From: Haliotis cracherodii
Taxonomy: Eukaryota
Direction: 5' to 3'
NCBI RefSeq assembly: GCF_022045235.1
Contig: NW_027266264.1
Coordinates: 19,716,001 to 19,780,000, forward strand
DNA: 64,000 bases
In this document: positions 21,890-59,852 of the stretch, one piece after another
How the letters are laid out: every line of letters starts with the position of its first letter
How positions within the stretch are numbered: position 1 is the stretch's first letter
Made by a program: the position numbers and the translations under genes
Notes under the pieces: generated by a model
Seen by the model: only the letters and a program-made list of their open reading frames with translations
What the model was told of the DNA's origin: nothing
The model's database searches: none

Positions 21890-22092
21890 ACTTAATCAAT
21901 CGTTTGTACCAGTCAATCCAGTGACTGACACCATGAGCACCGATCCTCGCAAATGTCATACGATGACATGCATCAACCAAGTCAGCGAGCCTGACCAACC
22001 GATCCCGTTAGATGCCTCTTACGACAAGCATAGTCGCCTTTTACGGCAAGCAGGGTTTGCTGAAGACCTAAACTGTTTATTTTACGCCGGAT
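21890..22092 (-). mobile_element. Family A retroposon, partial copy
   Basis: Matches consensus (caaccaagtcagcgagcctgacc...cttacgacaagcatagtcgcc). Confidence 0.8.
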
Positions 22093-22424
22093 CCTCAATC
22101 GGTACATCCCTATTTTAGATACATATATTTCTTATTTCAAAAAACCAAAGCGCAAATACTAAATCCTTCTGACACGTACTTCACGTGTAATCTGACAGCA
22201 TTAGATGTATATGCCACAAATAAAATATAGATAACTTTCTGCGTCGTCACTGAGTGAGTTGAGTTTAGATCAGAATTTCTGTCATGTCGCGGTGTGTTAT
22301 GCAGGTCTCCCTCTGGTGAAGCCTCCAGGCATGGACATAGTGTTGACAAACCAAGAATCTTACTCAGGCGAACCTGAGATTCCAACCCACGATCAAATGC
22401 ATGAATAGACCTAAAATTCAAACA

Positions 22425-25400
22425 AATCTGAGCAGGTCTTGAACACCAATACAGCGAACCTGGTCTAGAACACCAACACGCCTGAGCAGGTCTAGAACAC
22501 CAACACAGCTGAGCAGGTCAAGAACACCAACACAGCTGGGCAGGTCTAGAACACCAACACGGCTGAGCAGGTCAAGAACACCAACACAGCTGGGCAGGTC
22601 TAGAACACCAACACGGCTGAGCAGGTCAAGAACACCAACACAGCTGAGCAGGTCTAGAACACCAACACGGCTGAGCAGGTCTAGAACACCAACACAGCTG
22701 AGCAGATCTAGAACACCAACACAGCTGAGCAGGTCTAGAACACCAACACATCTGAGCAGGTCTAGAACACCAACACAGCTGAGCAGGTCTAGAACACCAA
22801 CACGGCTGAGCAGGTCTAGAACACCAACACAGCTGAGCAGATCTAGAACACCAACACAGCTGAGCAGGTCTAGAACACCAACACGGTTGAGCAGGTCTAG
22901 AACACCAACATAGCTGAGCAGGTCTAGAACACCAACACAGCTGAGCAGGTCTAGAACACCAACACAGCTGAGCAAGCCTAGGACACCAACACAGCTGAGC
23001 ATGTCAAGAACACCAACACGGCTGAGCAGGTCTAGAACACCAACACGGCTGAGCAGGTCTAGAACACCAACACGGCTGGGCACGTCAAGAACACCAACAC
23101 AGCTGGGCAGGTCTAGAACACCAACAGAGCTGGGCAGGTCAAGAACACCAACATAGCTGAGCAGGTCAAGAACACCAACACAGCTGAGCAGGTCAAGAAC
23201 ACCAACACAGCTGAGCAGGTCTAGGACACCAACACATCTGAGCAGGTCTAGAACACCAACACAGCTGGGCAGGTCTAGAACACCAACACAGCTGGGCAGG
23301 ACTAGAACACCAACACAGCTGGGCAGGCCTAGGACACCAACACAGCTGGGCAGGTCTAGAACACCAACACAGCTGGGCAGGTCTAGAACACCAACACAGC
23401 TGAGCAGGACTAGAACACCAACACAGTTTCCCATGTCTAGAACACCAACACATCTGAGCAGGTCTAGAACACCAACACAGCTGAGCAGGTCTAGAACACC
23501 AACACAGCTGAGCAGGACTAGAACACCAACACAGCTGAGCAGGTCTAGAACACCAACACAGCTGAGCAGGACTAGAACACCAACACAGCTGAGCAGGTCT
23601 AGAACACCAACACGGCTGAGCAGGTCTAGGACACCAACACAGCTGAGCAGGTCAAGAACACCAACACAGCTGAGCAGGTCAAGAACACCAACACAGCTGA
23701 GCAGGTCAAGAACACCAACACGGCTGAGCAGGTCTAGGACACCAACACAGCTGAGCAGGACTAGAACACCAACACAGCTGAGCAGGTCTAGAACACCAAC
23801 ACAGCTGAGCAGGACTAGAACACCAACACAGCTGAGCAGGTCTAGGACACCAACACGGCTGAGCAGGTCTAGAACACCAACACGGCTGAGCAGGTCTAGA
23901 ACACCAACACAGCTGAGCAGGACTAGAACACCAACACAGCTGAGCAGGTCTAGGATACCAACACGGCTGAGCAGGTCTAGAACACCAACACAGCTGAGCA
24001 GGTCTAGGACACCAACACGGCTGAGCAGGTCTAGAACACCAACACAGCTGAGCAGGACTAGAACACCAACACAGCTGAGCAGGTCTAGAACACCAACACG
24101 GCTGAGCAGGTCTAGGACACCAACACAGCTGAGCAGGTCTAGGACACCAACACAGCTGAGCAGGTCAAGAACACCAACACAGCTGAGCAGGTCAAGAACA
24201 CCAACACGGCTGAGCAGGTCTAGGACACCAACACAGCTGAGCAGGACTAGAACACCAACACAGCTGAGCAGGTCTAGAACACCAACACGGCTGAGCAGGT
24301 CTAGGACACCAACACAGCTGAGCAGGTCTAGGACACCAACACAGCTGAGCAGGTCTAGGACACCAACACGGCTGAGCAGGACTAGAACACCAACACAGCT
24401 GAGCAGGTCTAGAACACCAACACAGCTGAGCAGGTCTAGAACACCAACACGGCTGAGCAGGTCTAGGACACCAACACAGCTGAGCAGGACTAGAACACCA
24501 ACACGGCTGAGCAGGACTAGAACACCAACACAGCTGAGCAGGTCTAGGACACCAACACGGCTGAGCAGGACTAGAACACCAACACAGCTGAGCAGGACTA
24601 GGACACCAACACAGCTGAGCAGGTCTAGGACACCAACACAGCTGAGCAGGTCTAGGACACCAACACGGCTGAGCAGGACTAGAACACCAACACAGCTGAG
24701 CAGGACTAGGACACCAACACAGCTGAGCAGGACTAGAACACCAACACAGCTGAGCAGGTCTAGGACACCAACACAGCTGAGCAGGTCTAGAACACCAACA
24801 CAGCTGAGCAGGACTAGGACACCAACACAGCTGAGCAGGTCTAGGACACCAACACAGCTGAGCAGGACTAGAACACCAACACAGCTGAGCAGGTCTAGAA
24901 CACCAACACAGCTGGGCAGGACTAGAACACCAACACAGCTGAGCAGGACTAGGACACCAACACAGCTGAGCAGGACTAGAACACCAACACAGCTGAGCAG
25001 GACTAGGACACCAACACAGCTGAGCAGGTCTAGGACACCAACACAGCTGAGCAGGACTAGAACACCAACACAGCTGAGCAGGTCTAGGACACCAACACAG
25101 CTGAGCAGGACTAGAACACCAACACAGCTGAGCAGGTCTAGAACACCAACACGGCTGAGCAGGACTAGAACACCAACACAGCTGAGCAGGACTAGGACAC
25201 CAACACAGCTGAGCAGGACTAGAACACCAACACAGCTGAGCAGGACTAGGACACCAACACAGCTGAGCAGGTCAAGAACACCAACACATCTGAGCAGGTC
25301 TAGAACACCAACACGGCTGAGCAGGTCTAGAACACCAACACAGCTGAGCAGGACTAGAACACCAACACAGCTGAGCAGGTCAAGAACACCAACACAGCTG

Positions 25401-26520
25401 AGCAGGTCAAGAACACCAACACGGCTGAGCAGGTCTAGAACACCAACACAGCTGAGCAGGACTAGAACACCAACACAGCTGGGCAGGCCTAGGACACCAA
25501 CACGGCTGAGCAGGTCTAGAACACCAACACAGCTGAGCAGGTCTAGAACACCAACACAGCTGGGCAGGACTAGAACACCAACACAGCTGGGCAGGCCTAG
25601 GACACCAACACGGCTGAGCAGGTCTAGAACACCAACACAGCTGGGCAGGTCTAGAACACCAACACAGCTGGGCAGGTCAAGAACACCAACACAGCTGGGC
25701 AGGTCTAGAACACCAACACAGCTGAGCAGGTCTAGAACACCAACACAGCTGGGCAGGTCTAGAACACCAACACGGCTGAGCAGGTCAAGAACACCAACAC
25801 AGCTGAGCAAGCCTAGAACACCAACACAGCTGAGCAGGTCTAGAACACCAACACGGCTGAGCAGGTCAAGAACACCAACACAGCTGAGCAGGTCAAGAAC
25901 ACCAACACAGCTGAGCAGGTCAAGAACACCAACACAGCTGAGCAGGTCTAGAACACCAACACAGCTGAGCAGGTCTAGAACACCAACACAGCTGAGCAGG
26001 TCAAGAACACCAACACGGCTGAGCAGGTCAAGAACACCAACACAGCTGAGCAGGTCTAGAACACCAACACAGCTGAGCAGGTCAAGAACACCAACACAGC
26101 TGAGCAGGTCTAGAACACCAACACAGCTGAGCAGGTCAAGAACACCAACACAGCTGAGCAGGTCTAGAACACCAACACAGCTGAGCAGGTCTAGAACACC
26201 AACACAGCTGAGCAAGCCTAGAACACCAACACAGCTGAGCAGGTCTAGAACACCAACACAGCTGAGCAGGTCTAGGACACCAACACAGCTGAGCAAGCCT
26301 AGGACACCAACACAGCTGAGCAAGCCTAGGACATCAACACAGCTGAGCAGGTCTAGAACACCAACACAGCTGAGCAAGCCTAGGACACCAACACAGCTGA
26401 GCAAGCCTAGGACATCAACACAGCTGAGCAGGTCTAGAACACCAACACAGCTGGGCAGGTCTAGAACACCAACACGGCTGAGCAGGCAAAGAACACCATC
26501 ATACCTGGGCAGGTCTATCA
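22425..26520. repeat. 27-bp minisatellite, about 150 units (agcaggtctagaacaccaacacagctg)
   Basis: Direct inspection. It produces 9-aa-repeat ORFs on both strands. Confidence 0.98.
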
Positions 26521-31577: not shown

Positions 31578-38892
<7,315 letters not shown>

Positions 38893-41626: not shown

Positions 41627-41907
41627 GGGGGGCACGGGTGGCCCAGTCGTTTAAGGTGCTGCGATTCGCTGTGCAGAGTTGCGTCCCTTGGACACGCCAG
41701 AACCCTATGATTGTGGGTTCGAATCCCGGTACGCCCCGATTATGTTTCTAGGTTTGTCAGCACCATACCCGTGCTCGTGGGTTTCACCGGAGTAGTAAAC
41801 GTCTGAGACCTGCATCACCTCGGGCCTTCCTTCCACATTAAGCTGACACGCCTTGATATAACTGGAATATTGTTAAAAGCGGCGTAAAACCCAACTCACT
41901 CACTCAC
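41627..41907 (+). mobile_element. Family B tRNA-derived SINE (full length)
   Basis: A and B boxes, (ctca)n tail, TSD tttaaatggataa. Confidence 0.92.
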
Positions 41908-42129: not shown

Positions 42130-42397
42130 GGGCACAGGTGACCCAGTCGTCTAAGGCGCCGCGATTCGCTCTGCAGAGTTGCGTCCCTTGAGCACGCCAG
42201 AAACCTATGATTGTGGGTTCGAATCCCGGTTTGCATCGATTATGTTTCTAGGTTTGTCAGCATCATACCCGTGCTCGTGGGTTTCACCAAAGAGGTAAAC
42301 GTCTAAGACCTGCATCACTGCTTTCCTCCCACATTAAGCTGACACGCCATGATATAACTGGAATAATGTTAAAAGCGGCGTTAAACCCAACTCACTC
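42130..42397 (+). mobile_element. Family B tRNA-derived SINE
   Basis: Matches consensus. Confidence 0.88.
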
Positions 42398-43343: not shown

Positions 43344-46300
43344 ATGGGATCTGGATCTAGTAAAGAAAAGACAGGTAGGGTCGATACGAGGGGAGGGGGT
43401 TCAAAACCAGTCGCTGTTGCTAATGTAAATAACAACGTATCCATAAAGTCCACGACGGGTCATTCCAAAAGCGGAACCAATACGGACACCGGAACGACGA
43501 ATCAATCGCCGTCGAAATCACCCGTTAAAGACTCAAATGTTGAAAAAACTACTACGGAGCGTTCTCCAAGTAAGTCAGTTAAAACAGACACAAAACCCGT
43601 CAGTAAACTGGAATGGAATAGTGACTCCGACCTCGACGACGATGACTGGGACGACTTCCTCGGAACGACGACTTCAAAACCAGTGCCCAAACCGCACTCT
43701 AAGGTGTCACATGGGGAACAAGAGCAGAACGCGCATAACGAAATGAAAACTCAGGAACTATACCCAGAGACCTACGCACAACGCCACACGCGGCAACAGT
43801 ACACATTCGGACAGGATAGGTTGATTCGAGAGAAGACGATCTACAGGAACCCAGACGACTGGGGCATTGACGAGGACAAGGAAGAAGAGACGGTAGGGGG
43901 AAGCCTTTCTTTATTCTAACCATTTGTCCAATAAGAAATATATATTAAATAAATTAAAAAAACACACGTTAATATATGATTTATAATTATATTATTTGCT
44001 CATATGTTGGAAAACAACTGACCAAACATCAAACATGTTCTTAAAGGGGCTGTCTTGACGTCAAATGAGTAGCATATGTGAAATAAGAGATTCTCTTCGT
44101 CTACTTTTTCAATATTGTAATTTTTAACTATATATATATTAACTACAAGAATGTTCTTCATAAAATTTGAATTTATAGATTGTAGCAAATAGTGTTTTTG
44201 AGTACTTTGATAAAACTTGCTAGGACTGCCTTTGTGTCTTGCCGTAGCTCACCTTTAAGATAATATGAGGTAATTTACTCTGTTTTAATGATACCATGCA
44301 GCTAGATGTATGGCCGTATTTTGCTTGGGTTCACCACGTGCACTATGTAGTAGAGGTACACATTTAAATCTCCTCCTGTAAGTCATAAGAACATAATTCT
44401 ATAATAGCCGGCTATTCATAATACCCTGCAATCCTATATAACAGACATATAATATATTGGCGATTAGTTAATGAACCTTGAAAACATGTAACTGATTGGG
44501 AATGTCATGTTACTTAACATCCAGAGTGCATAGTTACTGTGAAGTTACCTCTATTCACAGGCGTTGTATGGCGTTTTGTTTATTTATTTTAATCTATGAA
44601 TTTAACTTGACCTGTTCAGACAGTCATGAAATATTTCTTAATATTTCTTATGGTATATTTAGTTTCCATTGTTTAACATTTGTTTAATGTGTTATCAGTG
44701 TAACTTTCTATACGTCGATAAAGGTAACTTGTGTTATGTAAACTACAGCTGACATGGTATGAATGGCTCTGTTTTATTCCCATTGCGACTGGTAGGAGGT
44801 AATTGAGGTATGTATTACTCTACAGCACAGTCAAAACAATACTTCACAAGTCACTACACGCTAATCTGTAACGTGAGCTCCTTGCACTGTCAGCTGATTG
44901 CATGTTCGTTACCACGAATATGAAATTTTGATTGACTTCAGTCAACCGAGGTCACCCCATTTCTAGCAACCAGGGTTGACTAGAATCAACCAGTGTTATG
45001 TAAGGGTCAAAGATAACAAATCACACGTCTAGAATATTTCAATACTGGGCCACAGTTTCCATGTGACTTACACAGTTACATCTAAAACGTGTAAGCACCT
45101 TTTCACTCCTGTCATGTCTTTAGTTTTGAATAACAACCTCTCTAAAACATAACTTTGAACAGAAAGGAAGAACATTTCTTACCCCTTTGGTTGGAGAAAC
45201 TGTGTAAGTTACAGTGTCCACGAAACATGTGAACCCTTGTTTTCTCCTTTGGTATATGTAACACGGTATTTTACATGTAAATTATAACAAGAAGGTTTTC
45301 TGTCAATGCAATAGCAAATATGTGCTCATTAGTTAAATTATCAGTGAATATAAGTGAGTGAGTTGGGTTTAACGCCGCTTTTAACAGTGAGTGAGTATGG
45401 TTTTACGCCGCCTTTAGCAATATTCCAGCAATATCACAGTTGGGGACACCAGAAATGGGCTTCACACATTGTACCTATGTCGGGAATCGAACCCGTGTCT
45501 TCGGCGTGACGAGCGAACGCTTTAACCACTAGGCTCCCCGACCGAACCGCATTTAACAGTAGTCCAGTTATATCAAGGCGTGTCCGCTTAATGTGGGAGG
45601 AAAGCCCGACCTGATGCAGGTCTCAGACGTTTACCACTTTGGTGAAACCCACGAGCACGGTTATGGTGCTGACAAACCTAGAAACATAATCGGGGTGAAC
45701 CGGGATTCGAACCCACAACCGTAGGTTTAATGTCATAATAAAAAGCTGTGTATAGCGCCAACATACCCGTTCATACAATGATTAACAATACGTCTTGATG
45801 TTAGTATATATGCCTTTGGTAATTTCACAGGACCTCTGCCATTACGCCTTGGTAGAAGACTACATTCATCAGCCTACGGTATTGACTGCGTGGGTTCGAA
45901 CCCCGTTGACGATACACTTTTATCTGAAATTGTCCTGGCGTCTTAGTAAATGATAGAGAAAAAAGAAGTTTAACTTACAATTCAATTAGTCAATGTCTGG
46001 TCAAGACAAGGAAGCCATTCTTTAAATACTAGTATAATATATACGCCGTGTAGATATTACCATTAACGTGCGATGTGTATTCGTTCACCAGGTCAAGGAT
46101 ACCACAGCCGATGATTCAATTCGCCAAAGTTTTATCTGTCATTAATTGCATTAGATATTACCGCATGTCTATACATAAAGTGAGTATGCAATTTGAGATT
46201 GAGTGGTATATTTACACCATACAATAGACCACGTGTTACTTAAACTCGTTTATAAAAAAAACGTTCAAACTGAAGAAGCCTAAATTTTTTTTTAGAAATA

Positions 46301-49252
46301 TTATTTTTGGAATTAATCATGTCACTGATCAACGTTACCCTCCGGAACTGTTGTTGGCTGACGAATATTCTACTTAAGGTATCCATGCCAGTTTGAAGTA
46401 ATTCAGCTCGTATATATTAATGTATATCTACAGAATAGTGCCACTGACATTGTTTCGACGGAAGCTGAATTGTAACAAGATCTAAACGAGCCTTTCTTCA
46501 CGTTTCAACTTTTATTGAAAATTTCTTTGCGCTATAAAGACCAGGAGAATCGCCAGAAACGCTGTCCTAGAAAACATGCAGCTGATGTGAGAAATTGGTA
46601 TCACATCGCCTGTGAATATACTACTCAACTTTGGATAGGTATATTTTTTATGTTTCCATGAAACACAAAATTGCACGATTCTCGAGTGTACTTTTGACAT
46701 ATCTCAGTATCCCTTTCAAAAGTTGAGTAGTATGATGTGCTTAACGCGGTTCACTAGAAACTGCACTTTTTATCAGTATTCCTGGAGTAACATATCACGT
46801 TTATAGTATCACGTGGACTACAAACCACAGGTATCCTGATTTACGTGTGGTGTTGAACAATAAAACAGTAGCCTTACCCAACCCACAGAGCCGCAGGTGC
46901 AAGGCGAACACGATACAGCGACAAGACAGGGCTGCATTGTTCAGATTGCTGTGTGAATTACAGAGGAAATGCTACCATGGTAATACCGAATACCATCTGA
47001 TTTTTCACTTCTTACAATTGAGTCTCATTTGCTCACCTCTGATTCCGAATACTTCTTAACACAAATCTCAATAGAACATATTCACTCTTCATACGAAAAA
47101 ACATAAACACTTTAGAATAAATAATGCCACTTTAATGGTGATTTTGCGTTTCTTTTTGATGCTCTACGCGCTATTTTGAACTTTCTTGTCGTTTCACATG
47201 CATTGAATAGAAAAGGTACAATGGCAGCTTTGGCAAGCAATAAAACACTTGTTAACCTCTCGTACATGTCTGTTATAACAATACACATGGCTGCCGTGTT
47301 TCTCCTACTCCCCGCAGCCATAATTGTATTATATTTCGGGTACTGCCAAAAGTTATCCTAAATTAACACTGCATTGTCAACCCTGGTTGCCAGAAATATG
47401 GTAACTTCAGTTGATTCAATTTTTAATAATCGGACCCACGTATGTATTGCCTGTGCTGTCCTGTAAAATATAACTGCTTGTGTATTGCCTCATGTGACCT
47501 TAGCTCATATCCCCGCATATACTGTGTATGGAGTAGAATGCCGATATAACATGCATTGCCTTCGGTATTCTTGGCATATCACTGGCTATTATATATACAT
47601 ATGGTGATTATTGCGCAAGATAATCGCGGTAGGACATCTAGTCGAATCATTTGTGCTGTATTGATTAACGCAATATTGGCCTAATGTTAATACGTAATAC
47701 AGACATCATTGTTGATTTAATGTAAAATGATATCACAACGCAAAAGGCATCTTCGCCATTACAGATAAAGTTTGGATAATAAAGAGATTAGTGTGCGTGC
47801 GTGCGTGCGTGCTCTACACCTTTCACGAAACTTGCATCCAAATCCTAGTTCTCTCAAATGCAAATACTCAGTCACTCGTTTCATGAGCCATTACGACACA
47901 ATCACACACGTGATACTCGCTATGCATTGCATATGGCGTCGTAGGCATATGTCAGCACGTTGGCTGTGCTGTGGCTATCCTTATGACAGTGTCCCCGCCA
48001 GTGTTGTTCTAAGCTGGTCACGGTGTTGCCATTATGTCCTATTGTGACTCGTTGATTCCAAAGTTGAAACATGTAGGAGAACCCAGAAATCGGTACGTAC
48101 AGAACTAAATTGTGAAGTCAGCAAATAACCACACAAGATCAACGAATAATTAACAAATTATTTTTAAATACGCAGGATTATGTTTAGAATCACAAAAACA
48201 ATACGATGGGTCAAATATGTGACAGCAGCAATAAATAACAGGCACTATTACACAAGTCAGTGCACACACGAATGTCGAGTATTAGTCACAGTCAAATGCC
48301 TTGAATGAGACTCGTGTTCCGTTCTTGAGTCCAAGACATAGTGCACAGGCAAGAATTCATTGCTTTGTATCCTGTACTCACTGGGCAAGTTAGGTAACAG
48401 AAGGAAGCCTTGAATCACCTTCGTCTCGTTCCAGAACGTCCTCAGTGTTGTCGAACCTGGACTAACATTTAGTCCCAGAAATAAAGTTATCTTATTTAAC
48501 CAAAAATATCTATAAAATACAATAAACAAAATAGACCCGTGAAGATTCCGGGGTATAGATTGGTCTTCAGCAACCCATGCTTGCCGTAAAAGGTTACTAT
48601 GCTTGTCGTAAAAGGCGACTAACGGGATCGGGTGGTCAGGCTCGCTGACTTGGTTAATGCATGTCATCGATCCCAAATGCGTGGATCGATGCTCTTTATA
48701 TCAATCACTGGTATGTCTGATCCAGACTCGATTATTTACAGACCGCCGTCATATAGCTGGAATATTGCAGAGTGCGGCGTTAAACAACCAACCAACCAAC
48801 AAATAAACAAAATACAAATCGAGCCTTACAATACAATGCTTAATTTCAGAGCTGAGGTCTAGACCTGCCAAAGAATTCTAGGCTTGAGTTGGGTTCCCTT
48901 TTTAATTTATTCGGTACGGTCGAACCATGGGTCGGTAACTGTTTCCAAGCCTGCATGCAAGTCCCTAACAGTGGCGCTCTCTGTATTGCCGGGACAATAA
49001 CAGTCACAATAACTGCCTCCGTAGATGGTGTAGTAGATGAAGCGACTGCCAGGAGGGCGGAAGTTAGTGGTTCGATCCCCGGCCGCGCCATACAAAAAGG
49101 CGTCCAAAAGTTGTTACTTGTTGTTGCCCTGTCTGGTGCTCGGCATTAAGGGGCAAAACAAGAGTCAGTTTACTGTGTCTCTGAGTTGATAAACGGCGGA
49201 ATGGTATCTCATTGGGCTAGCACTAAAAATCGGCGTAAGTCTAGGTAGCTAT

Positions 49253-49300
<48 letters not shown>

Positions 49301-50337
49301 TATACGTGTTGCTATATAGTAATCTCGTTTGTTTGCTGCCATGACACGCCTCGGTAAGTCCTCTCACACAGGCTGAAGTTAGAATCAATGATTATGATGC
49401 ACATACTTCAATAACCGGATGATGCTTGATATAAATTAGTATCGGCTCGGATATCGGTTTCAGATGAACGTCCAAAAAGATTAATTATTTCCCGCGAAGT
49501 CAGCTTTGAAGGAAAATAGGTCTCTTTCGGTTTACTGTTGAGTCAGTCCTGCTGGTTTTCCGGGGAAGGATGTGTCCCGCCCTTCATCTCCTTCTAACCC
49601 GTCGGACCCGTGAGGATCCGGGTTAGAATAGGTCTTCAGCAACCTATGCTTGCCGTAAGAGGTGACTGCTTGTCGGAAGATCCGACTAACGGGATCGCTG
49701 ATTTGGTTGATCTATGTCATCGTATCCCAATTGTGTAGATCGATGCTCATGATGTCAATCACTGGATTGTCTGGTCCATACTGGATTATTTACAGACCGC
49801 CGTCATATAACTGAAATCTTGCGGCGGTAAACAACAAACAAACAAACAAACCTGTCGGGACGGATAGGAACGTGCGTGTTGTTCCACGGGAGGCCATCAT
49901 TCCTGCCTCATCGATCCCCCACTGGGGCTCACACTATTCTCTCTTATAATATGTATTCACTTATTGATGCAGCATGCCTATAATTCTGGCAGGTCATAAT
50001 CCCAAGGCTTAATCAAATATATCCTTGGCGACGTGTGAAGGTCTCACCTAGATCTACGGGAGTGGGCGCTGTTTTCACCTCGGGCGCTGAGTCACGTAGA
50101 GCGCATTGCTAATCACGAAACAAACATCAGGGCGAAAGTATATATACATAAATCTATTCAAACGATACGTGGATCATTTACTAATACCGTTTTAAAATGT
50201 TAAAAACAATTGGTGCCAGTGCCAGATTACCATTCTTCCTAAAAAAGTAGTATTGGTTTTGATTTCTTCTCTAAAGACAGTTTCAAAAAAGACAGTTGAA
50301 GTTGGCAATATTTTGTATAGGGACTATACACATAGAC

Positions 50338-59325: not shown

Positions 59326-59852
59326 GACCCGTGAAGATCCGGGCTACAATACGTCTTCAGCAACCCATGCTTGACGTAAAAGGCGACTATGCTTGTCGTA
59401 AGAGATGACTAACAGGTTCGGATGGTCAGGCTCTCTGTTTGTTTGTTGTTTAACGCTGCACTCAGCAATATTCCAGCTAAATGACGGCGGTCTGTAAATA
59501 ATCGAGTCTGGACCAGACAATCCAGTGATTGACATCACGAGCATCGATCCACGCATTTGGGATCGATGACATGTATCAACCAAGTCAGCGAGCCTGACCA
59601 CCCGATCCCGTTAATCGCCTTTTACAACAAGCATAGTCGCCTTTTACGGCAAGTATGGGTTGCTGAAGACCTATTCTACCCCGGAATCTTCACGGGTCTC
59701 AGGCTCCCTGACTTGGTTGATGCATGTCATTGTATCCCAATTGCGTGGATCGATGCTCATGATGTCAGTCACTAGATTGTGTGGCCCAGACTGCCGTCAT
59801 ATAGCTGGAATATTGCTGAGTGCGGCGTCAAACAACAAACAAACAAACAAAC
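59326..59852 (+). mobile_element. Family A copy containing a second family A copy in opposite orientation (about 59435-59698)
   Basis: Outer TSD tgtcacag, inner TSD tcaggctc. Confidence 0.88.

Follow-up and report, generated by a model that had tools for sequence, protein, structure and literature searches.

Short interspersed elements (SINEs) are defined by Pol III (RNA polymerase III) heads, and the expression of the LP-SINEs has been a question since 2016. We analysed a SINE that recurs in a 64,000-nucleotide stretch of the Haliotis cracherodii genome (NCBI RefSeq assembly GCF_022045235.1, contig NW_027266264.1, positions 19,716,001 to 19,780,000, forward strand; hereafter the window). The closest described elements are the Haliotis LP-SINEs Hdi_LP and Hmi_LP (Matetovici et al. 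2016, PMC4758252), which are 255 bp long and have a head derived from long interspersed elements (LINEs); their first ~70 bp correspond to the 5' ends of Nimb-17_LMi, I-3_DR and RTE-9_CPB, LINEs of locust, zebrafish and turtle. In the text available, the head was proposed as a promoter from its position, the ingi/L1Tc ribozyme was given as an analogy only, and neither a fold nor covariation nor a viral occurrence is described. Bipartite non-autonomous LINEs (Kojima 2018, PMC5786205) likewise have an unrelated middle between a 5' piece and a 3' piece that are akin to LINE ends; unlike them, the present SINE begins at the second module of a LINE 5' untranslated region (UTR), not at the first base of the LINE. 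The exoribonuclease-resistant RNAs (xrRNAs) of viruses (flavivirus 1a, 1b and 2; Tombusviridae/Luteoviridae; coremin) are, like the motif described below, compact pseudoknots in viral 3' UTRs, sometimes in tandem (PMC8374639, PMC12397905, PMC10520033), and in those of plant viruses Xrn1 halts at the base of P1 (PMC12397905); the boundary observed here likewise lies at the foot of the first predicted stem. An xrRNA review anticipates cellular xrRNAs and, in the text available, names none.

The first 90 bases of the SINE are predicted to be a conserved RNA element composed of an H-type pseudoknot and a stem/internal-loop/hairpin domain. The shared motif (~75 nt) was also found in the 5' UTR of a full-length LINE of the same genome, directly behind a putative ribozyme of the hepatitis delta virus (HDV) type, and in seven viruses. 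The SINE family and its head sequence are already published; the fold, the covariation, the viral presence and the position behind the HDV-like ribozyme were found neither in Rfam 15 nor in the literature searched, and nor was a function for this head (Repbase, SINEBase, subscription journals and bioRxiv supplements, any of which may describe the motif, were outside its scope). The motif strings occur in none of the papers of that literature, as far as their text was available, and two virome papers mention frameshift pseudoknots only. Our best guess from the analysis is that the motif is xrRNA-like in action; it is a member of no described xrRNA or ribozyme class.

Predicted fold and 5' edge of the SINE head

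The fold was predicted from covariation. The pseudoknot runs in the order S1a, single U, S2a (7 bp), S1b, a loop ending with AGAAUA, and S2b; the 3' domain consists of a linker with P3a, an internal-loop strand of 4-6 bases, the P4 hairpin, a short strand rich in A, and P3b. In the SINE copy at 48534 (positions of the window) the parts are as follows.

48520..48533, + strand: 5' target site duplication (TSD), 14 nt, one mismatch to 48801-48814
48534..48800, + strand: whole LP-SINE-type copy (head, body, LINE-like tail, CAAC/CAAA repeat)
48534, + strand: 5' edge of the element, lying six bases ahead of the loop U (majority base, 0.38 at -7 and 0.79 at -6)
48536..48539, + strand: S1 5' strand CCCG, predicted partner 48549-48552
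48540, + strand: loop 1, single U
48541..48547, + strand: S2 5' strand, 7 bp, predicted partner 48562-48568, two-sided changes in 5/7 pairs
48549..48552, + strand: S1 3' strand CGGG
48553..48561, + strand: loop 3; the family majority ends with AGAATA, decayed in this copy
48562..48568, + strand: S2 3' strand
48574..48576, + strand: P3 5' strand CCC, predicted partner 48624-48626, support weaker than for S1 and S2
48578..48598, + strand: first copy of the duplicated 22-nt module, decayed
48600..48623, + strand: internal-loop strands and P4 hairpin (48605-48609 with 48615-48619, 5-nt loop)
48624..48626, + strand: P3 3' strand, with which the shared motif ends
48627..48750, + strand: family-specific body, including the gtcag/ctgac hairpin (48635-48649), not common to other families
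48751..48785, + strand: tail resembling the ~35 nt at the end of this genome's LINE
48801..48814, + strand: 3' TSD

Twenty-five representatives were parsed, of which 21 with at least 6 of the 7 S2 pairs were kept; L195, L274, MAG439 and LINE442 were dropped as decayed, and L234 and v430, which were kept, are probably mis-registered. Both S1 and S2 paired better with their own partners than with those of other families (0 of 10,000 permutations with the 21 representatives, and the same with 15 lineages). With the register fixed by S2, the mean for S1 was 4.05 bp with its own partner versus 2.74 bp cross-family (0/10,000), and in a control with equal search freedom for all 25 representatives, S2 formed 6.28 versus 5.24 of 7 bp (0/10,000). 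The base before S2a was U in 19 of the 21 representatives; U was not a selection criterion. In an alignment of 15 retroposon sequences, the kinship of which inflates such counts, two-sided changes were found in 12 of 21 pairs (S2, 5/7; S1, 2/4; P3, 5/5; 0 of 500 shuffles). P4 hardly varies among families, and loop sequences are strongly conserved. Note that AGAAT and the greater part of P4 were fixed in the search patterns; the near-invariance of both is therefore partly built in. Under ordinary folding with a program that cannot form pseudoknots, the stability was unremarkable (z, -0.08 to -1.64).

The original prediction, made from the letters of the window, had drawn a different fold for the head, with a closing stem cccgt/acggg and a pseudoknot between a hairpin loop and a downstream accc. 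Judged from this SINE by itself, either fold could form, as both draw on the CCC and GGG runs, and only the other families decide between them. The closing stem remained at background (6,024-6,992 of 10,000 permutations; pairs in 45% of the alignment cells versus 78% for S1), and the loop-to-accc pairing, which forms in 71% of the cells, was unsupported rather than excluded (1,802-2,583 of 10,000). Thus covariation, the check that had been proposed, was obtained for S1 and S2 across the 21 representatives and not for the stem and the pseudoknot as first drawn, and the gtcag/ctgac hairpin, once counted as part of the head, lies outside the shared motif. The more general claim, that the head is a conserved RNA with a pseudoknot and belongs to no Rfam family, is borne out by the S1/S2 covariation and the lack of an Rfam match. 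The pairing-preserving change pointed out in the copy at 49605 is real (U.G to G-C in P4), and it concerns a single decayed copy.

The 5' edge given above was obtained with 47 anchored copies from the window and from genome loci (counted from the U at 48540); the latter were found with the head as the query, which favours full-length copies. The -6 edge was observed in this SINE and in three related metagenome families, and the scallop rows of the published alignment suggest the same edge (by eye, in the part available). The spacing between the edge and AGAATA ranges from ~20 to 35 nt across families; thus, it is where the pseudoknot begins that sets the edge, and the conserved blocks do not. 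All of the sharp SINE edges are purines (G, A, G, G; in scallop, A in 6 of 7 full-length rows by eye), and the same position in the viruses and the LINE is not purine-first. Small-RNA reads from a related species (135 and 5 only) were too few for 5' ends and showed no pile-up at the edge; in all, three small-RNA runs and one contig run were uninformative on 5' ends.

Occurrence in the LINE, viruses and metagenomes

The LINE was reached from one lead among 30 loci of a second pattern; a query with a one-base variant gave SINE copies in 30 of 30 cases. It has open reading frame (ORF) 1 and an ORF2 with endonuclease, reverse transcriptase and RNase H, and the motif lies in its 5' UTR between the ribozyme and ORF1; the 5' UTR of an autonomous LINE had indeed been proposed as a place to look for the head. 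The module at the 5' end (7-bp P1, P2, 3-bp P3, UCCUCG-type loop, GG and CUAA) matched Rfam RF02682 (E 0.003, below the gathering score), two further HDV families matched the same site, and the element starts at the first base of this putative HDV-like ribozyme, ~60 nt upstream of the motif edge, with the motif directly behind the module. Among exact matches to the LINE-type motif, 707 of 760 keep the last strand of the ribozyme 2-5 nt upstream; point changes can account for its absence in the remainder. The first 30 LINE loci (26 distinct flanks) all start at the first base of the ribozyme, so that a start at the motif edge is true of the SINEs and false of the LINE (0/30). In LINE subfamilies the P4 loop varies and a U.U to G-C change occurs beside P4, as in one viral copy; thus, the motif looks maintained in the LINE. 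The ribozyme-bearing clades listed in the available text of PMC5786205 are R1, R2, R4 and RTE as well as Ingi and LOA, and neither Nimb nor I is among them.

The tail of the SINE resembles the last ~35 nt of this LINE with marginal scores: the LINE terminus was the best match in 6 of 7 copies, at 0-5 above the best of 100 shuffles. The SINE ends with a CAAA/CAAC repeat versus TCAC in this LINE; therefore, the true LINE partner may be another family. Three observations on the LINEs were made in passing. L347:395-452 (G000:C45:10554294) and its relatives represent an abundant, young RNase H LINE family with an HDV-like ribozyme at the start. Of the first 100 listed LINE-type heads, 69 fall within 0.76 Mb (G000:C2:20.90-21.66 Mb), a dense LINE cluster. 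In L346 near 1870-1900 (G000:C6:4569832-4569991), a deletion in a LINE copy has brought the first part of the HDV-like module next to the last part of the pseudoknot; the resulting head resembles the SINE start, and such a deletion is a possible route of origin.

Viral pattern scans gave mostly chance phage matches, which were sorted with a covariance model built solely from retroposon-type sequences. The model scored eight viral loci, corresponding to seven viruses, at 37-74 bits and the other 74 loci at 26 bits or less; a further 65 loci scored with it contained no new virus. In all seven viruses the motif is in the sense orientation with respect to the upstream ORF and lies behind the stop codon, with AGAAT 25-221 nt past the stop. 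It ends 17-122 nt from the record end in the six small records and is internal, between two same-strand ORFs, in a record of 212,482 bp, the length of which would match an insect iridovirus. Pfam matches were found to RNA-dependent RNA polymerases (RdRps; L037, RdRP_3; L081, RdRP_4) and to RNA-virus-type capsids (L033/L036, Peptidase_A21; L035, Capsid-VNN; L430, Viral_coat); Viral_coat capsids are also used by some DNA viruses. L031 had no Pfam match and shows RdRp-like motifs by eye; it contains a second copy of the motif, which the end of the record cuts off and in which S2 has compensatory changes. A weaker second copy in L430 was recognised by eye only.

In metagenome contigs, the motif was found in at least 122 stretches, which include several repeat families with unrelated bodies. 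In family 3 (L233, L223, L278 and L290) the motif stands fused in front of a tRNA-like head, an arrangement also reported for the MESC SINEs of scallop. The prokaryote collection gave seven pattern matches, one of them unscored by the model; the three that were inspected lie in eukaryote-like DNA, and one of these is a LINE 5' end. The bacterial records with L442/L444 (NZ_JRAA01000003.1), L437 and L441 hold LINE-like or microsatellite-rich eukaryote-type DNA, and contamination is likely.

Possible functions of the motif

Tentatively, and with somewhat less than an even chance, we propose that the SINE head blocks the 5'-to-3' exoribonucleases Xrn1/Xrn2 and thereby gives a promoter-less element a fixed 5' end. 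A SINE copy would be transcribed within a longer host transcript, 5'-to-3' decay would strip the upstream RNA and stall at the base of S1, and a LINE enzyme recognising the LINE-like tail would copy the trimmed RNA, so that new copies would begin at S1. Behind the HDV-like ribozyme of the LINE, the same fold would shield the uncapped RNA that this ribozyme leaves, without setting its end; in the viruses, it would yield a decay-resistant 3' fragment like those of flavivirus and plant-virus xrRNAs. A block to 5'-to-3' decay fits as a single function for the SINE, LINE and virus settings alike. The substrates of Xrn1 must have a 5' monophosphate, and RNAs released by ribozymes have a 5'-OH. To our knowledge, an RNA roadblock to 5'-to-3' decay has so far been known only from viruses. 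As in xrRNAs, the motif has at least one pseudoknot and is placed in viral 3' UTRs, in tandem in L031. We see an even chance for the most far-reaching reading: that the motif is a structurally new class of RNA that blocks exonucleases, that no such class had been met in cellular genomes before, that it has passed between retroposons of animals, RNA viruses and one large DNA virus, and that it lets SINEs multiply without a promoter by using host decay as 5'-end maturation.

Several observations weigh against a decay block. In the available text of PMC10321173, four plain frameshift pseudoknots of the H type failed to stall Xrn1, and for two of these an added hairpin did not help; resistance would thus need contacts of the 3' domain. 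In that domain P3 is weakly supported (265 of 10,000 permutations, 128 with one sequence per lineage) and not evident in two or three of the viruses. The fold matches no described xrRNA class (1a, 1b, 2, plant type or coremin, by Rfam and by the descriptions): unlike viral xrRNAs, the motif has no three-way junction, no stem-loop with a downstream pseudoknot and no coremin sequence, and it occurs in retroposons (PMC8374639, PMC12397905, PMC10520033, in the text available). Some metagenome families (L196, L241, L211, L214, L246 and others) keep AGAATA and the 3' domain and have lost the 5' half of the pseudoknot; P3 of these families is a compensatory mirror of P3 in related families. The edge is fuzzy in a fourth metagenome family (6 copies), none of the 30 inspected LINE loci starts at the motif, and the purine edges fit transcription initiation or cleavage at least as well. 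The viral matches near record ends could be chimeric assemblies; against this, L033 and L036 are independent with the same junction, the site in the 212-kb record is internal, and the orientation is uniform.

The original prediction had left a ribozyme, an internal promoter or a structure that recruits reverse transcriptase as candidates, with no mention of an exonuclease block, and since the first base of the SINEs is a purine, cleavage and initiation stay in play. If the motif were a new class of self-cleaving ribozyme, it would cut six bases before the loop U and free the SINE RNA from read-through transcripts. The sharp purine edge and the strongly conserved loop sequences would suit this, as would a pseudoknot that resembles the HDV P1/P2 frame without P3 and follows the HDV strand order. 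In HDV-type ribozymes, the catalytic C belongs to the strand that precedes the final P2 strand. In the motif this strand reads AGAAT(A/T), and, unlike in HDV, P3/L3 (0-1 nt between P2 and the 3' strand of P1), P1.1 and the catalytic C are missing; there was no match to a ribozyme in Rfam, and the hammerhead, twister, twister-sister, pistol, hatchet and hairpin models gave no head match at E up to 10, in accordance with the earlier statement that the head is neither HDV-like nor hammerhead. Several ribozyme classes are common in bacteria; the motif gave just the seven prokaryote-collection pattern matches described above, with all three inspected ones in eukaryote-like DNA. In favour of a ribozyme, the motif occupies the 5' slot of elements with known ribozymes (PMC5786205), and L445 continues into a putatively RTE-like sequence. 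Ribozymes are also found in linear RNA viruses, for the most part within 5' UTRs, by exception within 3' UTRs, and in pairs in the totiviruses (PMC13725137, in the text available), so that the viral occurrence by itself cannot exclude cleavage. In the small viruses, though, a cut would strip the 3' end. A self-cutting motif would also make LINE copies that start at the motif common; an intact-looking motif stands behind the HDV-like ribozyme, with the upstream sequence retained by each of the 30 loci inspected and by no fewer than 707 of the 760 matches, and all 30 start at the ribozyme. Self-cleavage is thus disfavoured, and we regard it as unlikely; should the motif prove self-cleaving after all, it would be a new ribozyme class.

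Equally unlikely, in our estimate, is a translation element that would bind ribosomes or initiation factors and enhance translation of uncapped LINE RNA and of viral RNA, and that SINEs would borrow to reach the ribosomes making LINE protein. Alu reaches ribosomes via SRP9/14, and cap-independent enhancers occur in viral 3' UTRs. The position between ribozyme and ORF1 in the LINE 5' UTR, the viral 3' UTRs, the confinement to eukaryote-type DNA and its viruses, and the fusion ahead of tRNA-type heads in scallop (in the text available) and metagenome family 3 agree with such a role; by itself, however, it leaves the fixed 5' edge in several independent SINE families and the RNA source of a SINE without a Pol III promoter unexplained, and no likeness to a known enhancer was found in Rfam. 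Less probable still, in our view quite improbable, is that the head acts as an internal DNA promoter taken from a LINE, with transcription starting at the purine. This was the published proposal, based on position (PMC4758252, in the text available), and the sharp purine-first edges and the similarity of the following bases across SINE families accord with it. The covariation and the presence in RNA viruses, which a DNA promoter cannot explain, point instead to selection at the RNA level; in addition, the distance from the edge to the conserved blocks varies by ~15 nt, and the LINE 5' end lies ~60 nt further upstream, at the ribozyme. A promoter role may exist on top of an RNA role. Whichever of the decay block and its alternatives is correct, the motif is an RNA module common to retroposons and viruses and absent from Rfam; its predicted structure covaries, one genome holds no fewer than 16,297 copies of it, and retroposons and viruses supply natural variants.

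SINE copies and other repeats

About 20 copies had been counted in the window; we obtained 24 element matches of at least 60 nt, old fragments among them, and every start that had been named is present. The common start base was also recovered, with 11 of the 24 starting within 3 nt of position 1. The other copies discussed here are as follows.

9279..9537, + strand: SINE copy reaching the 5' edge
10708..10933, - strand: SINE copy reaching the 5' edge
32560..32798, - strand: SINE copy with intact start and a deletion in the pseudoknot
49605..49850, + strand: second SINE copy, U.G to G-C in P4
56928..57213, + strand: SINE copy with three modules and a long TSD
59326..59848, both strands: + strand SINE copy broken by a complete - strand copy (59437-59698)

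The copies at 9279 and 56928 have T in place of the initial G, and that at 32798 keeps position 1 with the deletion inside the element. In the pair at 59326-59848, one copy is inserted in reverse inside the other with a 12-nt TSD. Variable TSDs and repeat tails had been noted; TSDs of at least 10 nt were found in 6 of the 24 matches, and the copy at 48534-48800 (~265 bp) has a 14-nt TSD and a CAAC/CAAA tail; its AGAATA loop and first module are decayed. The 22-nt module gave 32 matches in the window versus 0 in 100 shuffles, and its reported two- to three-fold repetition is a duplication of this SINE, the module being single in the other 24 representatives. The first 15 nt of the element had 16,297 exact matches in the 1.18-Gb genome (control pattern, 0).

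The lack of A/B boxes and of an ORF was borne out for the B box and for ATG-started ORFs of more than 44 aa, none of which was found in the SINE copies, and not fully for the A box, to which one loose match lies in the body. ARAGORN detected a tRNA in none of the copies, and Rfam 15 gave nothing at the gathering score in the window and nothing for the head at E up to 10; a tRNA, 5S, 7SL or snRNA origin of the head was rejected, as neither these nor the box search gave evidence of one. The element is very likely the published Haliotis LP-SINE (PMC4758252, in the text available): it is a TSD-flanked element of about 255 bp with a LINE-derived head and a tandem-repeat end, it has variable TSDs and neither a small-RNA head nor Pol III boxes, and its length of 245-267 bp, set by the module number, includes the published 255. 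The scallop 'Nimb-17 homology' head (supplement Fig. S2 of PMC4758252) and this SINE have in common the P4 block TCGTAAGAGGCGACTAA, followed by GGGATC; by eye, the scallop head keeps S1, S2 and P3 with a different sequence, and this comparison together with the motif in the LINE of this genome points to a head of the LP type. The start of the SINE head was unmatched in the available supplements of PMC4758252 other than file 1. The majority line has AATATT ~20 nt upstream and does not have the AATATA hexamer that precedes the repeat in Haliotis LP-SINEs. It had been stated that an already described SINE domain would speak against a new RNA, and this is half the case, the LP-SINE head having been published as a sequence only (PMC4758252, in the text available). 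The Meta/MESC domain, a first guess for the head, was dropped when the papers pointed to the LP head.

Other repeats with the same tail type and TCAC repeats at the end were found at 41849-41895, 42345-42391 and 45400-45437, and a B-box-like sequence lies upstream in the repeat at 45437. A tandem array with ~34-nt spacing (G000:C23:27097893-27100530) is built on the P4 hairpin module, and arrays of the 22-nt module are also present in L025 and L027. At L316:1939-1981, small-RNA reads of ~30 nt start at two sites of the SINE body, both on U and mostly antisense, and are piRNA-like. ARAGORN predicted a tRNA-Trp at 872-947 of the window. The part at 22001-26000, with an AT skew of 0.4-0.6 and raised GC, is probably a simple-repeat array.

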